In this document: piece by piece, positions 1 through 38,891 of the stretch
How positions within the stretch are numbered: position 1 is the stretch's first letter
Layout of the letters: each line of letters opens with the position of its first letter
IMG/VR virus record: IMGVR_UViG_2576861092_000011
Location: 1 to 38,891 of that record
Direction: 5' to 3' (one strand)
Length of the DNA: 38,891 bases
Source: a virus
Taxonomy: Duplodnaviria > Heunggongvirae > Uroviricota > Caudoviricetes
Notes under the pieces: model-generated
The model's database searches: none
What the model saw: only the letters and a program-made list of their open reading frames with translations
Told to the model about the DNA's origin: nothing
Position numbers and translations under genes: made by a program

Positions 1-1158
1 ATGCTCACCGTTAAGCAGATTGAAGCAGCTAAGCCGAAAGAAAAACCATACCGCCTTCTCGATGGTAATGGCCTGTACCTTTATGTCCCTGTATCCGGGA
101 AAAAGGTATGGCAGCTTCGCTACAAGATTGACGGTAAGGAGAAAATCCTGACCGTCGGAAAATATCCGCTTATGACTTTGCAGGAAGCAAGGGATAAAGC
201 ATGGACCGCGAGGAAAGACATCTCGGTTGGCATCGATCCGGTAAAGGCGAAAAAGGCTTCGTCTAACAACAATTCATTTAGTGCGATTTACAAGGAATGG
301 TACGAGCACAAGAAGCAAGTCTGGTCAGTAGGCTATGCAACTGAACTTGCAAAAATGTTTGATGCCGACATTTTACCTATCATCGGCGGCCTTGAAATTC
401 AGGATATTGAGCCGATGCAACTGCTGGAAGTAATCCGCAGATTTGAAGATCGCGGTGCAATGGAGCGAGCCAACAAAGCCCGCAGAAGATGCGGCGAGGT
501 TTTCCGTTACGCTATTGTCACTGGTAGGGCTAAATATAACCCGGCACCTGACCTTGCTGACGCCATGAAGGGATACCGCAAGAAGAACTTCCCGTTTTTA
601 CCTGCCGACCAGATCTCGGCATTCAACAAAGCACTTGCAACATTTTCAGGAAGTATCGTATCGCTCATTGCCACCAAGGTTTTACGCTACACTGCCCTAA
701 GAACGAAAGAGCTTCGTTCCATGCTATGGAAGAACGTCGATTTTGAAAACAGGATTATCACCATCGACGCCAGTGTGATGAAGGGACGCAAAATTCATGT
801 GGTCCCGATGTCAGACCAGGTGGTTGAACTTCTCACTACGCTAAGCTCAATCACCAAACCAGTCTCAGAGTTTGTTTTTGCCGGGCGCAACGATAAGAAG
901 AAGCCAATCTGCGAGAACGCGGTATTGCTTGTGATCAAACAAATCGGCTATGAAGGTCTGGAAAGCGGTCACGGATTCAGGCATGAATTCAGCACGATTA
1001 TGAACGAGCACGAATGGCCTGCCGACGCCATTGAAGTGCAACTGGCACATGCCAACGGCGGTTCTGTACGTGGAATTTACAACCATGCTCAGTATCTCGA
1101 TAAGCGCAGAGAAATGATGCAGTGGTGGGCGGACTGGCTTGATGAAAAGGGGGAGTAA
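1..1158 (+). CDS. intS: P4-type tyrosine integrase (prophage integrase), 385 aa
   Basis: Full-length ORF. N-terminus MLTVKQIEAAKPKEKPYRLLDGNGLYLYV is typical of P4-family integrases; C-terminal HGFRHEF and IYNHAQY carry the catalytic H-x-x-R and Tyr. Matches my recollection of E. coli K-12 KplE1 IntS. Window begins at its ATG. Confidence 0.9.
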   Translation: MLTVKQIEAAKPKEKPYRLLDGNGLYLYVPVSGKKVWQLRYKIDGKEKILTVGKYPLMTLQEARDKAWTARKDISVGIDPVKAKKASSNNNSFSAIYKEWYEHKKQVWSVGYATELAKMFDADILPIIGGLEIQDIEPMQLLEVIRRFEDRGAMERANKARRRCGEVFRYAIVTGRAKYNPAPDLADAMKGYRKKNFPFLPADQISAFNKALATFSGSIVSLIATKVLRYTALRTKELRSMLWKNVDFENRIITIDASVMKGRKIHVVPMSDQVVELLTTLSSITKPVSEFVFAGRNDKKKPICENAVLLVIKQIGYEGLESGHGFRHEFSTIMNEHEWPADAIEVQLAHANGGSVRGIYNHAQYLDKRREMMQWWADWLDEKGE

Positions 1159-1348: not shown

Positions 1349-2416
1349 ATGAAACATATACAATCTTTAGATGGTGTGAGAGGTATTGCGGTGCTCATTG
1401 TAATGCTTTTTCATGCCAAAGTTTCAGGATTTTCTCTTGGTTGGTCTGGAGTTCCGCTGTTCTTTTGCTTATCTGGTTTCTTAATTACCTCAATCCTTAT
1501 CGAGGATAAAGACTCTGGTTTTAGTAACTATATTAAACGATTTCTTATAAATAGATCGCTTAGAATATTCCCGTTATTTTATGCTTACCTACTTGTTAAC
1601 TTTATTCTTCTAATTGCAACTGGGAAACCAACGGATGGTTATTTGTGGTTTATAACTTATCTACAAAACTATTATATAGGAATAAATGTTACAACACCTG
1701 GAATTTTGGGGCACACCTGGTCTCTTGCAGTGGAAGAACAATTTTACTGGCTTTGGCCTCTATTCATATTTTTCATAAACAAAAAGAATATGAATCTGAT
1801 TTTTATCATACTAATAATAACATCAAGTATATCAAGATATTTTATATTTCAAATCACTGATGGAAACCCATACATTGTAAATGTAACTCTTATCAGTTGC
1901 ATTGACATGTTAGTTCTTGGTGCTCTGTTTTCAAAGATAAAAGATGATAAGTACGCATATGAATCAGGATTTTTAACTTTTATAGCAGGTGTTGGGCTGG
2001 TTCTTAATGGAATAAATTCTGTTGGTCTTAATGCTTTTTGGAACCCTGTAGATTGGGCTGGGAAATGCTGGTATATGTTTACAGCGTTTGGGATGATTTT
2101 TTCATCTGCAATTTTTTTCATTTACAAGTGGAGTGTGCTAGGGAAAAAACAAATAATAACAAAAGCATTATCATTAAAGCCATTAACATTTACAGGAAAG
2201 ATAAGTTATGGTTTGTATATGTGGCATTTGCTGTGTTTTTCAATTGCAAACAAAATGTCCTCCTTGTTTGGGGTAAACAATAATGCTGTGATAATAGCAT
2301 GTGGGTTTGCTATCGCATATATAGTATCAATTGCATCATACTATCTTTTTGAAATACATTTTCTTAAATTAAAAAGAAAAACCAATAGAAATGAAGACAA
2401 TTTAGTTACAGTATAA
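1349..2416 (+). CDS. oac: Acyltransferase-3 family integral membrane protein, probable O-antigen O-acetyltransferase (lysogenic conversion)
   Basis: 355 aa, multi-pass hydrophobic; N-terminal motif LDGVRGIAVLIVMLFH typical of OafA/Oac acyltransferases. Markedly AT-rich versus flanking phage DNA. Sits between int and tailspike as in Sf6. Confidence 0.8.
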   Translation: MKHIQSLDGVRGIAVLIVMLFHAKVSGFSLGWSGVPLFFCLSGFLITSILIEDKDSGFSNYIKRFLINRSLRIFPLFYAYLLVNFILLIATGKPTDGYLWFITYLQNYYIGINVTTPGILGHTWSLAVEEQFYWLWPLFIFFINKKNMNLIFIILIITSSISRYFIFQITDGNPYIVNVTLISCIDMLVLGALFSKIKDDKYAYESGFLTFIAGVGLVLNGINSVGLNAFWNPVDWAGKCWYMFTAFGMIFSSAIFFIYKWSVLGKKQIITKALSLKPLTFTGKISYGLYMWHLLCFSIANKMSSLFGVNNNAVIIACGFAIAYIVSIASYYLFEIHFLKLKRKTNRNEDNLVTV

Positions 2417-2447
2417 AAATAGGGCGGGGAAACCGCCCTATTTTTAT
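2416..2447. terminator. Bidirectional Rho-independent terminator between convergent oac and tailspike
   Basis: Stem AGGGCGG / CCGCCCT with loop GGAAA, flanked by an A-run on one side and a T-run on the other (aaaat-agggcggggaaaccgcccta-tttttat). Confidence 0.75.
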
Positions 2448-4159
2448 CTATCCTCTCTCCACGCCTGCACGAAACATGTAACATTGATGTTTGATACTCC
2501 ATTTCCTGTGGTTGTATCATACACTCGAGCAATGGCAGTTCCACTGCTATGGTAAGTGTCAAAGCTCACTGCGTACTTGAATGGTGATGGCATAGTATTG
2601 GAGTGAAAATCTGGAACCGCCATTGCATATCTTGCATAGAATCCAAAGTTAATTATGTCTCCAGATTTTAAAGTAAGAATGTTTGTATAGTTAGGGGAGT
2701 TTGATATCTTCTCGTCAACACGTATTAGCCTCCCATTACCTTGGATAGTAATTACTGTGAATATTCGATTTGGATCATTGAGATAAACAACAGCTTCATC
2801 ACTGATAATTAGGTGACCTATTGTGCCATCGTCGTTGTAGATTTGAGGGTCGTTTATACGTACTACAGCGTTACCCCTAACCCGGAACAGGTAGGCATTT
2901 GCCCCTGCAGCGTTAACCCTGTTGAATGTCGGGGAGTTAAATGTAACCTCAGAACTAGAGGCGACCACGATAGCCTGGCTTCCTGCTGTAATTTTCCCGT
3001 TTGCAACGTCCATTTCGAAGTTAGGTTGATTAAATATGATTCCTCTTGAGTTCGTATCTATCTGCAGGAAATAAGCATTGGCGGACCCGTTATGTCCCAT
3101 GTTAAGCGCGTTGAATATCTGGTTGCTAGCGCCAGAAACTTTCACGGCATAAGCCGTCCAGTTTGCAACATAACACCCATTGAACACGTTTTGAATAATT
3201 GTTCCGTTACTGGATAGGTTAATCCCGATTCGGTTGTTATTGCACCTCATATTGTTATAAATATTTGAAAAATCAGCATATCCAGCGTTGTAACCAATAT
3301 CAAAGAAATCGAGATAAAGGTTGTTAAACTCACAGTTAACTGCCTTTCCGCAAAAAGACATGTCTATTCCGACCCCGCTACCAACAGGAGGACCGCCAGC
3401 AACAGATCCGTTAACTTGGAGATTCATGTTTGATATAGTAATCCCTCTAACGTCAGAGCCCTCAGGCTTTATTCCGATCGTGTTTATAGGAACGTTAACA
3501 ACTGTTGATGTTATGGATTCACCAGTTATGCTAGTTTTATTTTTTAACTCAAAATTACCGCTCCATACTCCATTAGGCACCTTCAGTAGACCATTGGCCT
3601 CACCTGTGGCAACGGCAATGTTGACAGGGTTTACGTTTTCATTTGTCGCCCCGTAACCACGGATATCACCAATTCTCTGATAGTCATCAACAGATATAAA
3701 ATCATGCACTGTCCTTCCATCGGTAATGCCAACCATGGAAGAACCTATTGATGATGCAAGACGCTGCTCAAGCTGATCCGGGTCGTACTTCAGTACATTC
3801 GGAAAATAAAACTGCTGCGCACCGTACGCATCATAAACAGCCATAGAATGGCCTTGCACGGTAACGAATTTGGCAATCTGTCCATTATATACAGGGTAAC
3901 CAGCAGCGTTAATGATGATTGGTTGCGAAACAGGAACGTGAGAGCCGTCTTCGCTCTCCATATAAACCTGAATCTGGTTTTCAGGATTTACCGGATCAGT
4001 GTCAATTTTTCCTATATAAATTTTGCCATTGGCAACCGCTTTAAAAGAACGTGCCATAGTGAAGAGTTGCGAAGGCATGCTTACCACAACATTTGCAGTG
4101 ATATCTGACATTTCATTGCTCCAGACGAATGATATGATGCAACCATGATGTGATTGCAT
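2444..4159 (-). CDS. Tailspike protein: P22 gp9-like N-terminal head-binding domain plus distinct beta-helix receptor-binding/O-antigen-depolymerase domain
   Basis: N-terminal ~110 aa ([46 protein letters not shown]...[15 protein letters not shown]...NVLKYDPDQ) closely matches the P22 gp9 head-binding domain; the rest is Asn/Gly/Ser-rich repetitive sequence typical of right-handed beta-helix. 3' part is AT-rich. Confidence 0.9.
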
Positions 4160-18471: not shown

Positions 18472-18960
18472 TTATTTCCCTTCTGTTTGCTTCCCAGCGG
18501 GGAACGAATCAACGCTGCCGCCGGAATAGCAGTCAAGATCAATTGCGACTTGTACCGCTTCTATCGCATTTTTGCCACAGTGCATGGCAGTGCGAGCAAT
18601 CAGCCCACCACTACCAATGGCGTAAGGTTCAACCTGTAGCGAAATACTCGCCCGCGTTTCGCCTTTCTCTTTTGAGATGATGTAAGCACGACCAGCACCG
18701 ATGATAGCAAGCGCTGTGAAAGAGAATGTCGGGAGAAATTCTGATGCATACGTCAGGTTATTCTTAAGCAGTTCCTGCAATTCCATCTCCGCGCCGCAAT
18801 CACCAGAACAACCTAATGCAACCACTTTACTGCCGCAAACCTCCCACCCAGATTCTGGCGGTGTGTAAATCTTTTGTTCTGTATACGAACACACAACATC
18901 ACCAGATGATGCCTGGGTGTCAGATGCCAGGGTCTTTCCATCCCATGCAATAGTGGTCAT
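18472..18960 (-). CDS. Ntn-hydrolase, HslV / 20S-proteasome beta-subunit-like peptidase (phage accessory gene)
   Basis: 162 aa. [23 protein letters not shown] puts Thr immediately after Met with the TTI..G...LASDT pattern; a Lys about 30 residues in; AIGSGG motif. These are the HslV/proteasome-beta hallmarks. Confidence 0.6.
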
Positions 18961-18961
18961 A

Positions 18962-19204
18962 TCATGCTCCGGTAGTGAACAGGTCTAACGCTTCCTTCGA
19001 TTTACGCACCGCTTCGATAGTGCGAGATGTGAAGTCTGGATTTGCACCGCCATCGTTGTAGTGCAACTTGAACAATTCCAGTTTCAGCTGGTCAGCACCA
19101 ATGAATGCAAAAGCTTCCTCTGCCGCTGAATTGTTCTTAGATAGCAGTCGGTAAATTTCTAACTTGAATTTCTGTTCTTCAGTCATGGGAATAATCTCTG
19201 CCAT
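18962..19204 (-). CDS. Small hypothetical protein (80 aa), P22 orf80 position
   Basis: ORF with GGAG RBS; stop abuts the start of the HslV-like gene, suggesting translational coupling. Confidence 0.5.
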   Translation of the reverse strand: MAEIIPMTEEQKFKLEIYRLLSKNNSAAEEAFAFIGADQLKLELFKLHYNDGGANPDFTSRTIEAVRKSKEALDLFTTGA

Positions 19205-19507
19205 TGTTGGCTCCGTTTATCCGTTAAAAGGGATATCAGTTAAGTTATCCCGTGCAGGGTATAAGCCATTGTCGAGACCACTCATTGAATGGCCTCTGCA
19301 ATAACCGATGTCTTTCCATCAGTCCGCCACCACAAAGAATCTTTTTTGCCATAAGGCAGGAGGTTCATCTTTCAGTGGCTGCCAGTGTTATTTCCCCACT
19401 TACTGGCTTGGGTTGCTTCGTGGTACTGCTGTTAATTAGTGACCAGAAATTAACTCCGGTTTCATTATCAAGCCCACCCGTAGATAGGCTTTGTAATGCC
19501 TACATGG

Positions 19508-19987
19508 TTAAATGATTTGCCAGTCTTCAGCCATCAGGTCGCCAATGGATGGAACCCATGTAGCAAGGCGGTTCTGTGAGTTTTTCAATACAAGCGTGTC
19601 ATTGAAAGTTGGCTCGCCAACATATTCGCCAAAGCCATAACCCAACGCAGACGCTAATTTTCCCCCTTTCACGAGATAAACAAACTGGTCTTTCCCATTC
19701 CATCCTGCCCGCTGCAAACTTTTGCCCTGTTTTAACGCTTCCATGGCAAGGCCGAAACTTAGCCCTGATACCGGACGATAAGCCTTTTCGAATACTTCTT
19801 TTGGACTCCAGCTAACGTAGCCATCAAAGCGATCGGTGTTAGGTTTTCCGCCATCCAGATATTCAACCAGATAGCCTTCGTCCTCGCCGTTTTCTCCGGC
19901 AGGAAGCTGCCAGCCACGAAAATCGTTATATGCCTGTCTCGTCATCGGAAAGGCGTTAATCAGTTTTACGCCAATATGCTGGGTCAT
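19508..19987 (-). CDS. DUF2829-domain protein (Tad2-like fold) with N-terminal extension
   Basis: C-terminal ..FGLAMEALKQGKSLQRAGWNGKDQFVYLV...DLMAEDWQII matches the DUF2829 signature as I recall it. Start set at internal ATG 19987 (AGGT RBS); the 200-aa track ORF upstream extension looks spurious. Confidence 0.6.
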   Translation of the reverse strand: MTQHIGVKLINAFPMTRQAYNDFRGWQLPAGENGEDEGYLVEYLDGGKPNTDRFDGYVSWSPKEVFEKAYRPVSGLSFGLAMEALKQGKSLQRAGWNGKDQFVYLVKGGKLASALGYGFGEYVGEPTFNDTLVLKNSQNRLATWVPSIGDLMAEDWQII

Positions 19988-20008
19988 AAAATTACCTATG
20001 CAGTTGGG

Positions 20009-20036
20009 AATAAAAAGCCCCGCAAATGCGAGGCTA
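20009..20036 (-). terminator. Rho-independent terminator after the lysis cassette
   Basis: Minus strand AGCCTCGCATTTGCGGGGCT followed by TTTTATT, between Rz stop and the DUF2829 gene start. Confidence 0.55.
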
Positions 20037-20209
20037 AATCCTGGTATTTGTAATGAACTGGCTCTTATCTCAACGCAGCCCCTTACCGCGCGCCATATGC
20101 TCAACTTCAAGCATCAGCAATGAGATGTTTAATCTGGATTCACTACGGAAGTGATCACCACCCTGTCTACAGAGCCAGATGTGAAGGATAATGAGTAAAA
20201 TTATCGCTA

Positions 20210-20647
20210 TCATCGAAGGCATTGCGTCCTGATGTACTCCTGCAGGTAGTTAACCTGCGCGGTTATCCTGTCGATTCCACTTCGGAGACGGTAATAATTG
20301 AGTTCAGCATCTGCTGTAAGTCCTGGGCTTTCTCCATCGCCCATGCTGCTGGCTCCGGTCGTTGACTTTGCACAGGTGGCGGCGACTTGCAGGCGCTTAC
20401 GACCAGCAGAAACATCAGCACGGAGACTTTCGATAGTCGCGTTAGCATCAGCAAGCTCCTTTGTGTATCTGGCGTCGAGTTCTGCTACATCACGTTGACG
20501 CTTCTGCATGTCAGCGATTATGGATGTGGCCTTATCGCGCTGCTCTTTATAGGCGATGGCGTTATCACGGTAATGATTAACAGCCCATGACAGGCAGACG
20601 ATGATGCAGATAACCAGAGCATAAATAATCGCGGCGACTCTGCTCAT
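20210..20647 (-). CDS. Rz: Rz i-spanin
   Basis: 145 aa; N-terminal TM segment [31 protein letters not shown] very close to lambda Rz; follows endolysin with overlap. Confidence 0.85.
20263..20454 (-). CDS. Rz1: Rz1 o-spanin lipoprotein, embedded in +1 frame within Rz
   Basis: Signal peptide plus lipobox (LLVVSAC) followed by Pro-rich segment, nested in Rz as in lambda. Confidence 0.7.
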
Positions 20648-21120
20648 ACCTCAATCTCTCTGACCGTTCCGCCAGCTTCTTTGAATTTTGCAATCAGGCT
20701 GTCAGCCTTATGCTCGAACTGACCATAACCAGCACCCGGCAGTGAAGCCCAGATATTGCTGCAACGGTCGATTGCCTGACGGATATCACCGCGATCAATC
20801 ATCGGTAAAGCGCCACGCTCTTTAATCTGCTGCAATGCCACAGCGTCCTGACTTTTGGGAGAGAAGTCTTTCAGGCCAAGCTGCTTGCGGTAGGCATCCC
20901 ACCAACGGGAAAGAAGCTGGTAGCGTCCGGCGGCTGTTGACTTGAGTTTGGGGTTTAGCGTGACAAGTTTGCGAGGGTGATCGGAGTAATCAGTAAATAG
21001 CTCTCCGCCTACAATGACGTCATAACCATGATTTCTGGTTTTCTGACGTCCGTTATCAGTTCCCTCTGACCACGCCAGCATATCGAGGAACGCCTTACGT
21101 TGATTATTGATTTCCACCAT
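20644..21120 (-). CDS. R: Endolysin, lambda R-type lytic transglycosylase
   Basis: 158 aa; matches my recollection of lambda R almost residue-for-residue ([39 protein letters not shown]...). Confidence 0.9.
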
Positions 21121-35830: not shown

Positions 35831-36631
35831 ATGACCATCCACTTTCACGGCAGCCCAATATGGGGTGATGAGCATGCCCATACAGATATGCTGATTAAAG
35901 CCCTTTACCGTGATGGTGGGGCTTTTGTTTCATTTGCCAGACCAGAGCAGATGAAAAAGATTGCCATGTTCCCTTGTGATATACGCCTTGATAACGGTGC
36001 TTTTAGCGACTGGATGAAAGCATTAAAGAAAGGCACTCCGGTAGACTGGAGTAAGAGACGAGCAAAATTCTACGACTTTGTTGGGAAGTGGTTCAGCAGA
36101 ATTGAATGGTTTCTTATACCTGACGTTATCGAAGGGACAGAGGCAGAAAACGACGAGCAGATTGAGTTGGTTCCTGATTGGCTAAAATCAAAAGCGGTTC
36201 CGGTCTGGCATACCGACGAATCAATTGAACGTCTTTTACGCCTTTCTGGCAAATTTGAATGGGTGGCGATTGGATGCTGCGGCCCACACAGGCACATACG
36301 CTCTAAATGGTGGGAACAGAGAATGGATGAAGTTTTCACTGAGCTTTATATCAATCGTAATTTGAAAGTGAAAATTCATGGTCTTCGAATGCTCGACGTG
36401 AGAGTTCTTGGTATGTATCCGTTCGCCAGTGCGGATTCTACTAATGTTGCTGTTAACGTACCGAAGACAGAGAAGCGATTTCCTGAGATTACCGACAAAC
36501 TGGCACGTACAGCTGTACTTCGCGCTGCTATTGAAAAGGTGCACCCGCCATCGATATCAGCATGGGTAGACAGAAAGATGAGAGAGCCGGCGCAAGCCGG
36601 TTTTTTATTTGAATTCACCGACGCCGCTTAA
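35831..36631 (+). CDS. Hypothetical protein (266 aa), function unknown
   Basis: Good RBS (GGGGA); largest unassigned early-left ORF; no confident family recognised by eye. Confidence 0.55.
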   Translation: MTIHFHGSPIWGDEHAHTDMLIKALYRDGGAFVSFARPEQMKKIAMFPCDIRLDNGAFSDWMKALKKGTPVDWSKRRAKFYDFVGKWFSRIEWFLIPDVIEGTEAENDEQIELVPDWLKSKAVPVWHTDESIERLLRLSGKFEWVAIGCCGPHRHIRSKWWEQRMDEVFTELYINRNLKVKIHGLRMLDVRVLGMYPFASADSTNVAVNVPKTEKRFPEITDKLARTAVLRAAIEKVHPPSISAWVDRKMREPAQAGFLFEFTDAA

Positions 36632-37643: not shown

Positions 37644-38891
37644 CTATATTGCTGAAGGTACAGGCGTTTCCATAACTATTTGCTCGCGTTTTTTACTCAA
37701 GAAGAAAATGCCAAATAGCAACATCAGGCAGACAATACCCGAAATTGCGAAGAAAACTGTCTGGTAGCCTGCGTGGTCAAAGAGTATCCCAGTCGGCGTT
37801 GAAAGCAGCACAATCCCAAGCGAACTGGCAATTTGAAAACCAATCAGAAAGATCGTCGACGACAGGCGCTTATCAAAGTTTGCCACGCTGTATTTGAAGA
37901 CGGATATGACACAAAGTGGAACCTCAATGGCATGTAACAACTTCACTAATGAAATAATCCAGGGGTTAACGAACAGCGCGCAGGAAAGGATACGCAACGC
38001 CATAATCACAACTCCGATAAGTAATGCATTTTTTGGCCCTACCCGATTCACAAAGAAAGGAATAATCGCCATGCACAGCGCTTCGAGTACCACCTGGAAT
38101 GAGTTGAGATAACCATACAGGCGCGTTCCTACATCGTGTGATTCGAATAAACCTGCATAAAAGACAGGAAAAAGTTGTTGATCAAAAATGTTATAGAAAG
38201 ACCACGTCCCCACAATAAATATGACGAAAACCCAGAAGTTTCGATCCTTGAAAACTGCGATAAAATCCTCTTTTTTTACCCCTCCCGCATCTGCCGCTAC
38301 GCACTGGTGATCCTTATCTTTAAAACGCATGTTGATCATCATAAATACAGCGCCAAATAGCGAGACCAACCAGAAGTTGATATGGGGACTGATACTAAAA
38401 AATATGCCGGCAAAGAACGCGCCAATAGCATAGCCAAAAGATCCCCAGGCGCGCGCTGTTCCATATTCGAAATGAAAATTTCGCGCCATTTTTTCGGTGA
38501 AGCTATCAAGCAAACCGCATCCCGCCAGATACCCCAAGCCAAAAAATAGCGCCCCCAGAATTAGACCTACAGAAAAATTGCTTTGCAGTAACGGTTCATA
38601 AACGTAAATCATAAACGGTCCGGTCAAGACCAGGATGAAACTCATACACCAGATGAGCGGTTTCTTCAGACCGAGTTTATCCTGAACGATGCCGTAGAAC
38701 ATCATAAATAGAATGCTGGTAAACTGGTTGACCGAATAAAGTGTACCTAATTCCGTCCCTGTCAACCCTAGATGTCCTTTCAGCCAAATAGCGTATAACG
38801 ACCACCACAGCGACCAGGAAATAAAAAAGAGAAATGAGTAACTGGATGCAAAACGATAGTACGCATTTCTGAATGGAATATTCAGTGCCAT
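37644..38891 (-). CDS. cscB: Sucrose:H+ symporter (LacY-family oligosaccharide permease), host gene
   Basis: 415 aa, 12-TM MFS pattern; matches my recollection of E. coli CscB (MALNIPFRNAYYRFASSYSFLFFISWSLWWSLYAIWLKG...). Window ends at its start codon. Confidence 0.85.
   Translation of the reverse strand: MALNIPFRNAYYRFASSYSFLFFISWSLWWSLYAIWLKGHLGLTGTELGTLYSVNQFTSILFMMFYGIVQDKLGLKKPLIWCMSFILVLTGPFMIYVYEPLLQSNFSVGLILGALFFGLGYLAGCGLLDSFTEKMARNFHFEYGTARAWGSFGYAIGAFFAGIFFSISPHINFWLVSLFGAVFMMINMRFKDKDHQCVAADAGGVKKEDFIAVFKDRNFWVFVIFIVGTWSFYNIFDQQLFPVFYAGLFESHDVGTRLYGYLNSFQVVLEALCMAIIPFFVNRVGPKNALLIGVVIMALRILSCALFVNPWIISLVKLLHAIEVPLCVISVFKYSVANFDKRLSSTIFLIGFQIASSLGIVLLSTPTGILFDHAGYQTVFFAISGIVCLMLLFGIFFLSKKREQIVMETPVPSAI

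Follow-up and report, generated by a model that had tools for sequence, protein, structure and literature searches.

Among the phage proteins known to counteract Thoeris defence, the closest described relative of the gene discussed here is Tad2 of the lytic Bacillus myovirus SPO1 (Gp34.65; Protein Data Bank (PDB) entries 8SME, 8SMF, 8SMG and 8WJE), a single-domain protein of 89 residues that grips 1''-3' glycocyclic ADP-ribose (gcADPR) through van der Waals contacts of W25 and W73 and polar contacts of N26 and D79 (Yirmiya et al., bioRxiv 10.1101/2023.05.01.538930). Tad2 proteins of the SPO1 type bind gcADPR and block Thoeris of type I though not of type II, whereas those of the ModTad2 clade, named after a protein of a Myroides odoratus prophage (PDB 8V3E, 9EIB), bind histidine-ADP-ribose (His-ADPR) and block type II but not type I; type IV Thoeris is blocked by neither SPO1 Tad2 nor ModTad2. 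HgmTad2, SptTad2 and SaTad2 also bind cyclic dinucleotides by means of an insertion of 35–41 residues between β2 and β5, which in HgmTad2 (also known as AcrIIA7; PDB 8KBI–8KBM) accommodates cGG and cGAMP; in SPO1 Tad2 this insertion is much shorter and no tested cyclic nucleotide was bound. The subject of the present analysis is a Tad2-like gene at positions 19508..19987 (minus strand) of the 38,891-nucleotide IMG/VR record IMGVR_UViG_2576861092_000011 (hereafter the window), a P22-like (Lederbergvirus-type) E. coli prophage in reverse orientation. Its product, in which a Tad2 domain follows an N-terminal domain of about 75 residues (hereafter the N-domain), is probably a late-expressed Thoeris counter-defence protein, the Tad2 domain of which would tetramerise and sequester a TIR signal, probably gcADPR, with the N-domain pairing by strand swap.

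The open reading frame (ORF), 159 codons plus a stop, begins with ATG at 19987–19985 and ends with TAA at 19510–19508, which is exactly the interval given in the original prediction, made from the letters of the DNA, and the peptide strings quoted there are found in the translation. Residues 77–159 (19511..19759, minus strand) match Pfam family PF11195 (Tad2-like, formerly DUF2829) with an E value of 7.8e-22 and 78 bits, as against a gathering cut-off of 25, over profile positions 2–73 of 73, so that the DUF2829 signature originally suspected in the C-terminal half has withstood the profile search. The best match among PDB sequences is SPO1 Tad2 (8SME/8WJE; E 1.8e-26, 95 bits), with which residues 76–159 align without gaps and share 41 of 84 positions (49%), followed by ModTad2 (E 4.7e-20, 75 bits; 38/85 identical, 45%); SptTad2 and HgmTad2/AcrIIA7 yield far weaker matches, confined to the N-terminal part. 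The AlphaFold2 model of the whole protein (mean predicted local distance difference test score 91.6, predicted template modelling score 0.68) displays, in the C-terminal half, the succession expected of a Tad2 fold, namely an N-terminal helix and then an antiparallel sheet with helices in its loops. In the gap-free alignment the counterparts of W25, N26, W73 and D79 of SPO1 Tad2 are W96, N97, W144 and D150, respectively; the codons of the first two, read directly, lie in a GWNG motif at 19697..19702 (minus strand), and those from W144 to D150, corresponding to a W..PS..D motif, at 19538..19558 (minus strand). Across 72 aligned full-length two-domain homologs, W96, W144 and D150 do not vary, and the conservation of N97 is at least 90%. 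Profile, homology to validated Tad2 proteins, predicted fold and ligand-contact residues are therefore in agreement as to the Tad2 fold that had been anticipated; judged by its sequence, the C-terminal half can confidently be taken for a bona fide Tad2/DUF2829 domain and the gene be named a Tad2-family sponge. A Tad2 homolog as such is ordinary, and RefSeq already gives the DUF2829 label.

As to the ligand, the two pocket tryptophans are separated by 48 residues, a spacing identical to that of SPO1 Tad2, and the insertion between them, YGFGEYVGEPTF, resembles its SPO1 equivalent, FGFGEYINEPVF, the patterns compared being YGFGEY..EP.F and FGFGEY..EP.F; by contrast, the insertion of ModTad2, which like SPO1 Tad2 is a single-domain protein, is unrelated in sequence. 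The long insertion defining the dinucleotide-binding Tad2 subgroup, such as that of HgmTad2, is absent, the spacing being that of SPO1 Tad2. On these grounds a gcADPR sponge directed against type I Thoeris is the most likely reading of the ligand, and binding of dinucleotides of the antiphage signalling systems based on cyclic oligonucleotides (CBASS) by this Tad2 domain appears unlikely; because its insertion is short and the members that bind cyclic dinucleotides need a long one, rescue from CBASS through the Tad2 domain, an outcome envisaged in the original prediction, is not to be expected. What distinguishes the protein from SPO1 Tad2, with which it has in common the Pfam family, the pocket residues, the spacing and the insertion motif, is the extra 75-residue domain at its N-terminus and its provenance from the late operon of a temperate P22-like coliphage.

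The N-domain (residues 1–75; 19763..19987, minus strand) had been described as an unassigned segment of about 75 residues, and indeed a Pfam scan of residues 1–77 returned no match even at E ≤ 10 and a search of PDB sequences with the N-domain profile returned chance-level matches only; it constitutes a separate domain that belongs to no Pfam family. Prediction of its structure, which had been recommended, gives a confidently folded, small β-rich domain with the order β-β-α-β-β-α. No match in sequence or fold links the N-domain to the known sponge or signal-cleaving families Acb2/Tad1, Acb4, Sequestin, Lockin, Acb5 and TadIV-1, the last three of which were rejected on the published descriptions of those proteins. 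Also rejected was a relationship to the "head" of pdAcrIIA7 (PDB 9KZR), which consists of two helices in 48 residues, unlike the β-rich N-domain. As many as 23 of the 75 residues (~30%) are at least 90% conserved, with W, Y, N, D and S frequent among them, a composition recalling that of the Tad2 pocket, and the domain is acidic, with a net charge of −3.

The distribution of the N-domain is very wide. When 1.84 billion cluster representatives were searched with a profile of the domain, 2,923 proteins were retrieved with E ≤ 1e-3, and 1,377 with E ≤ 1e-10; the count of ~2,900 refers to clusters at 50% identity, and the domain was found at either end of proteins 73–354 residues long. A tblastn comparison with 50,697 phage records detects it in 137, among whose hosts are Escherichia, Vibrio, Klebsiella, Pseudomonas, Acinetobacter and Rhizobium, with crAss-like phages and a Clostridium phage in addition. 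Erwinia phage phiEaP8 and long contigs encode stand-alone N-domain proteins of 73–86 residues, and the stand-alone genes of phiEaP8 and of loci L012 and L017 have no sponge neighbour at all. The combination of N-domain and Tad2 is found at full coverage in more than 100 clusters, gp49 of phage N4 being among them; the fusion to an N-terminal segment noticed in the original prediction is thus present, but it is not a one-off and belongs instead to a large conserved architecture.

To judge from the proteins compared, the N-domain is an independent, highly conserved and very widespread module that recurs as a partner of phage sponges. The Pfam partners identified among the 142 best representatives are Tad2-like in 51 cases, Sequestin (PF21825) in 40 and Acb4 (PF13876) in 15, with an Acb2/Tad1-hairpin, an AP2 and an HNH domain occurring once each. 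Parsing of the same 142 proteins into domains left 26 without any flank of at least 40 residues, which look stand-alone, and labelled the flanks as Tad2 (43), Sequestin (28) or Acb4 (11); four more flanks are labelled Sequestin + Tad2 and another four Acb4 + Sequestin, which with the N-domain makes triple combinations. Thirty-six flanks carry no label and several of these resemble frameshifted junk. The C-terminal parts of P0245, P0254/P0288, P0357 and P0367 are partner segments matching nothing known, and such segments could be further, undiscovered sponge modules.

PF13876 is the family of the CBASS sponge Acb4 (bioRxiv 10.1101/2024.12.30.630793), and PF21825 is that of Sequestin, a sponge of 3' cyclic ADP-ribose discovered through its Pfam fusions to Tad2 and Acb4 (bioRxiv 10.1101/2025.07.12.664507); the N-domain escaped the Pfam-based screen that found Sequestin because it has no Pfam entry. 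Functional sponge fusions have been documented in Acb4-Tad2 of Pasteurella phage Pm86 and in Acb4-Sequestin of Ab09 gp59. The protein described here resembles these multi-sponge fusions in that counter-defence modules are combined in one polypeptide, but differs from them in that both of their modules are sponges with shown ligands, which is not the case of the N-domain.

A protein built on the same overall logic is RyR Tad, i.e., gp68 of Pectobacterium phage vB_PatP_CB1, described in a preprint of June 2026 (bioRxiv 10.64898/2026.06.04.730250), in which a homologous N-domain is likewise followed by a gcADPR sponge. Residues 3–72 of gp68 are homologous to the N-domain (hhalign 96.8%, E 2.3e-10, 30% identity over 70 columns), and a Foldseek search of BFVD matches the model to an RyR-domain protein of Yersinia phage TG1 (E 1.2e-4, template modelling score 0.76). 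A split form of this arrangement exists on a metagenomic contig (L016:2501-3141), where an 86-residue N-domain ORF lies 27 nucleotides upstream of a 117-residue RyR-domain ORF. Unlike the sponge moiety encoded in the window, that of RyR Tad has a helical RyR-repeat fold and not a Tad2 fold, and the protein is a dimer; in the crystal of gp68 the N-domain forms a strand-swapped dimer in which β1 is inserted in the partner protomer, and residues 1–86 expressed alone were inactive against type I Thoeris (bioRxiv 10.64898/2026.06.04.730250). Two features that the present domain possesses and that hardly vary elsewhere, the RGW motif and the DGGKxN loop, are missing from the N-domain of gp68, so that the negative result obtained with gp68 need not transfer to the domain considered here.

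Like other members of PHROG 872, gp49 of Escherichia phage N4 (EF056009 34003-34485, 160 residues) has the complete architecture; it consists of an N-domain (~54% identical) followed by a Tad2-like region at residues 83–159, but belongs to a different phage family and occupies a different slot, beside the gene of the virion RNA polymerase. It adjoins gp48, the Acb4 gene, in an anti-signalling hotspot of N4 (2026 preprint), and no experimental characterisation of gp49 as a two-domain protein was found in the searchable literature. The notion that gp49 itself is an Acb4 fusion was discarded, the Pfam results indicating that GenBank gp49 comprises N-domain and Tad2 and that gp48 is Acb4.

The accessory slot in which the original prediction had placed the gene is recognizable in related phages as a variable site, delimited by the lysis cassette on one side and by the DUF2560 and terminase genes on the other, where other sponge genes are found. 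Acb4 (PF13876) occupies this slot in Sf6, Huey and E. coli 55989, either alone or beside an N-domain-Tad2 gene: Sf6 has an Acb4-family gene only (gene 66), Huey has both genes, and the prophage of E. coli 55989 (L005) carries a Tad2-like gene together with Acb4 on a ~415-bp stretch absent from the window, where the site of Acb4 corresponds to a 303-bp spacer (19205–19507, compared with L005 1506-2222) between the Tad2-like gene and DUF2560. Across the P22-like relatives the slot thus contains N-domain-Tad2, Acb4, both or neither. Since it is a CBASS sponge, Acb4, that sits there in the relatives, the slot between Rz/orf65 and DUF2560 of P22-like phages appears, from these gene contents, to behave as a hotspot of signal sponges.

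Of the two halves of these two-domain proteins, it is the N-domain that is better conserved, the mean pairwise identity being 0.67 as compared with 0.57 for the C-terminal domain, and there are 57 pairs in which the N-domains are at least 0.85 and the C-terminal domains less than 0.55 identical, as opposed to three pairs displaying the reverse pattern. Kapi1_043 (L003:1809-2330, 173 residues) and Huey CDS64 (L001:997-1497, 166 residues), which come from close relatives of the prophage, are almost identical to the present protein over their first 80 residues but have much longer Tad2 insertions, with pocket tryptophans separated by 62 and 55 residues, respectively, as against 48. As far as sequence comparison can tell, Tad2 cassettes that differ in the length of their insertion (short, medium or long) are swapped behind a near-identical N-domain. 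Because the Kapi1 spacing approaches that of HgmTad2, in which the residues matching the pocket tryptophans are W21 and W87, the long-insertion variants of Kapi1 and Huey may, by analogy, bind cyclic dinucleotides. The exact gene is present in 37 of 5,426 complete E. coli genomes; eight further E. coli genomes match at less than 80% coverage, and the two listed among these eight match the N-domain half only.

The analyses above show to which family the protein belongs, its fold, the conservation of its contact residues and the arrangement of its domains with their distribution; its oligomeric state, its ligand, the inhibition of Thoeris, the time at which it is expressed and what the N-domain does are inferred as follows. 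By analogy with SPO1 Tad2, the Tad2 domain would assemble into a homotetramer in which W96, N97, W144 and D150 form inter-protomer pockets, and these would enclose the ADP-ribose-derived messenger of the Thoeris TIR (ThsB) proteins, most probably the 1''-3'/1''-2' gcADPR of type I systems, with the consequence that the effector ThsA would not be switched on. The N-domain probably pairs by β-strand swapping and would either brace the sponge oligomer or contribute a second binding activity. Transcription is probably late: Q(gp23) antitermination would allow read-through into this gene and the structural genes alike; this timing is suggested by the presence of a terminator, by the lack of a detectable promoter (no sigma-70-like promoter was found on the minus strand in the scanned interval 18900–20700) and by a Q-type antiterminator gene upstream. 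The putative terminator, identified by consensus scan and RNA folding at 20007..20035 (minus strand), is an intrinsic-terminator-like hairpin with a T-tract, AGCCTCGC-ATTT-GCGGGGCT followed by TTTTTATT, whose 8-bp stem, containing six GC pairs and closed by the loop ATTT, has a folding energy of −16.4 kcal/mol (z −4.2), none of 200 shuffled sequences folding equally well. Its location, with the Rz/small-ORF end of the cassette on one side and the Tad2-like gene on the other, upholds, at the level of a sequence prediction, the claim that the gene comes after the lysis cassette terminator.

Several considerations weigh against a gcADPR sponge of this kind. The evidence is wholly computational; the experimentally characterised Tad2-family proteins considered here are single-domain or carry only the short helical head of pdAcrIIA7, which does change the activity of that protein, and the presence of an N-terminal domain might affect how the tetramer assembles or how accessible the pocket is. 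Thoeris is not known to be common in E. coli, the exact gene is rare among the complete genomes of this species at the frequency given above, and a late operon is an uncommon place for a counter-defence gene if protection has to come early. Furthermore, identity to ModTad2 is only slightly below that to SPO1 Tad2 and the four contact residues are common to both clades, so that the choice between type I and type II depends mainly on the insertion and on the score. The small margin between the two matches leaves room for a Tad2 domain that sequesters another TIR product, be it His-ADPR or a different NAD-derived signal, and hence protects from type II rather than type I Thoeris, but we deem this unlikely in view of the better score obtained with SPO1 Tad2 (95 vs 75 bits) and of an inter-tryptophan insertion that is SPO1-like and foreign to ModTad2.

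A different question is whether the N-domain might itself counteract defence, as one more sponge of a signal or as a small enzyme that cleaves it, which would make the protein a dual-specificity inhibitor comparable to the Acb4-Tad2 and Acb4-Sequestin fusions. This is a possibility to be entertained tentatively, given that the partners of the domain in the 142 representatives are nearly all known sponges, to which RyR Tad is to be added, that Sequestin was discovered by the same logic of fusion to known sponges, that 26 of the proteins look stand-alone and the copies of phiEaP8, L012 and L017 have no sponge neighbour, that the domain has many near-invariant residues and is conserved in excess of the Tad2 domain, and that its persistence over very distant hosts suggests an invariant target. 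On the other hand, residues 1–86 of gp68 are inactive alone and serve for dimerisation in the crystal, the net charge of the N-domain is acidic whereas the sponge pockets known so far are usually basic, and neither Pfam nor PDB offers a match to a known sponge. An anti-CRISPR function of the AcrIIA7 type, exerted by binding the trans-activating CRISPR RNA (tracrRNA), must be contemplated inasmuch as DUF2829 proteins were first reported as AcrIIA7, the homolog of phage Huey is annotated as "anti-CRISPR protein" and a paper of 2026 describes tracrRNA binding by head-less AcrIIA7. It is nevertheless extremely improbable, for the similarity to AcrIIA7/HgmTad2 is limited to ~30 aligned residues (E 1e-6 to 5e-6) and the long extended domain is absent, the insertion being short; the inhibition of Cas9 by HgmTad2 was not reproduced in another laboratory, and full-length pdAcrIIA7, with its N-terminal head, is inactive. 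The "anti-CRISPR protein" label borne by close homologs is probably misleading. E. coli is also not known to have type II CRISPR-Cas. Finally, the gene might have no counter-defence role and encode, for instance, a phage regulator or a nucleotide-binding protein of late development, as its position in the late operon and a weak PHROG match to a "transcriptional regulator" (phrog_643, E 6e-5) could suggest; the lack of a PADLOC match would be expected under either reading. This too is very unlikely, considering that close relatives vary in what the slot contains and can dispense with it, that the residues lining the pocket of a validated sponge show no variation and that the labels of the flanks accompanying the N-domain are all those of sponges.

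The immediate surroundings of the gene, all on the minus strand, are those of a P22-like late region. The lysis cassette consists of the genes of the holin (21427-21104), the endolysin (21120-20644) and Rz with embedded Rz1 (20647-20210), and the end of Rz is overlapped by a 50-residue ORF (20222-20070) with a hydrophobic N-terminus, for which Pfam gave no match; small ORFs annotated at this position are gene 65 of Sf6 and, in Kapi1, a signal-peptide protein. After the hairpin, a Shine-Dalgarno-like AGGT (19994..19997) precedes the ATG of the Tad2-like gene by 7–8 nucleotides, and beyond the gene follow DUF2560 (19204-18962), a 162-residue HslV-like ORF (18960-18472) and the genes of the gp3-type small terminase (18466-17978) and of the large terminase (18000-16504). 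A longer ORF of 200 residues, beginning at a TTG at 20110, was rejected, as it crosses the terminator hairpin and both the homologs and RefSeq begin at the ATG. The full length of the protein matches PHROG 872 (E 3e-69), a 99% identical NCBI protein (P0001) is labelled "DUF2829 domain-containing protein", and a coding sequence of equal length, WP_000191869.1, is found at the matching position of related E. coli prophages; among phage records, Escherichia phage HZ41 comes closest across the region, being 97.9% identical over 1.1 kb. PADLOC returned no match for the gene, as is expected of a counter-defence gene, and a literature search using the protein accession found nothing.

The 162-residue ORF located between DUF2560 and the small terminase gene begins with MTTIAWDG and matches PHROG 1040, "peptidase HslV family" (E 2.8e-37), though neither Pfam nor PDB sequences nor PADLOC gave a match; it looks like a proteasome-beta/Ntn-hydrolase-like gene, and at the corresponding place of the Kapi1 and E. 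coli 55989 loci no gene of its size is annotated. In the early region an ORF of 266 residues (35831–36631, plus strand) matches PHROG 887, "queuine tRNA-ribosyltransferase" (E 3e-102), with no Pfam model; it may encode a DpdA-like 7-deazaguanine DNA modification enzyme, which would be anti-restriction. An O-antigen acetyltransferase gene adjoins the tailspike gene (1349–2416, plus strand, and 2444–4159, minus strand), an arrangement for serotype conversion that is customary in P22-like and Sf6-like phages. The int gene lies at 1–1158 (plus strand), and an excisionase-like region is found at ~36.6–37.2 kb. The last gene (37644–38891, minus strand) encodes a LacY-family sugar symporter (PF01306, E 1e-193), and near-identical DNA is present in induced-prophage records as a "sucrose permease" adjoining tRNA-Arg; ARAGORN detected no tRNA in the window. 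This gene is probably host flank (cscB at argW), in which case the window would consist of the integrated prophage plus one host gene.

What raises this gene above routine annotation is the association of an uncharacterised, extremely common partner domain with a cassette-like exchange of Tad2 variants. The N-domain is one of the most frequent partners of four or five sponge families, and is a candidate for a new family of signal-binding domains or else for a general device by which sponges oligomerise. Should it prove to be an effector in its own right, it would represent a new and very widespread counter-defence family, acting alone in many phages and in others in combination with Tad2, Sequestin, Acb4, Acb2/Tad1 or RyR-Tad, either as a sponge of an immune messenger that Tad2 does not cover, such as His-ADPR, N7-cADPR or a cyclic oligonucleotide, or as a signal-cleaving enzyme; the N-domain would then be the constant part of these proteins, behind which the sponge cassettes are exchanged.

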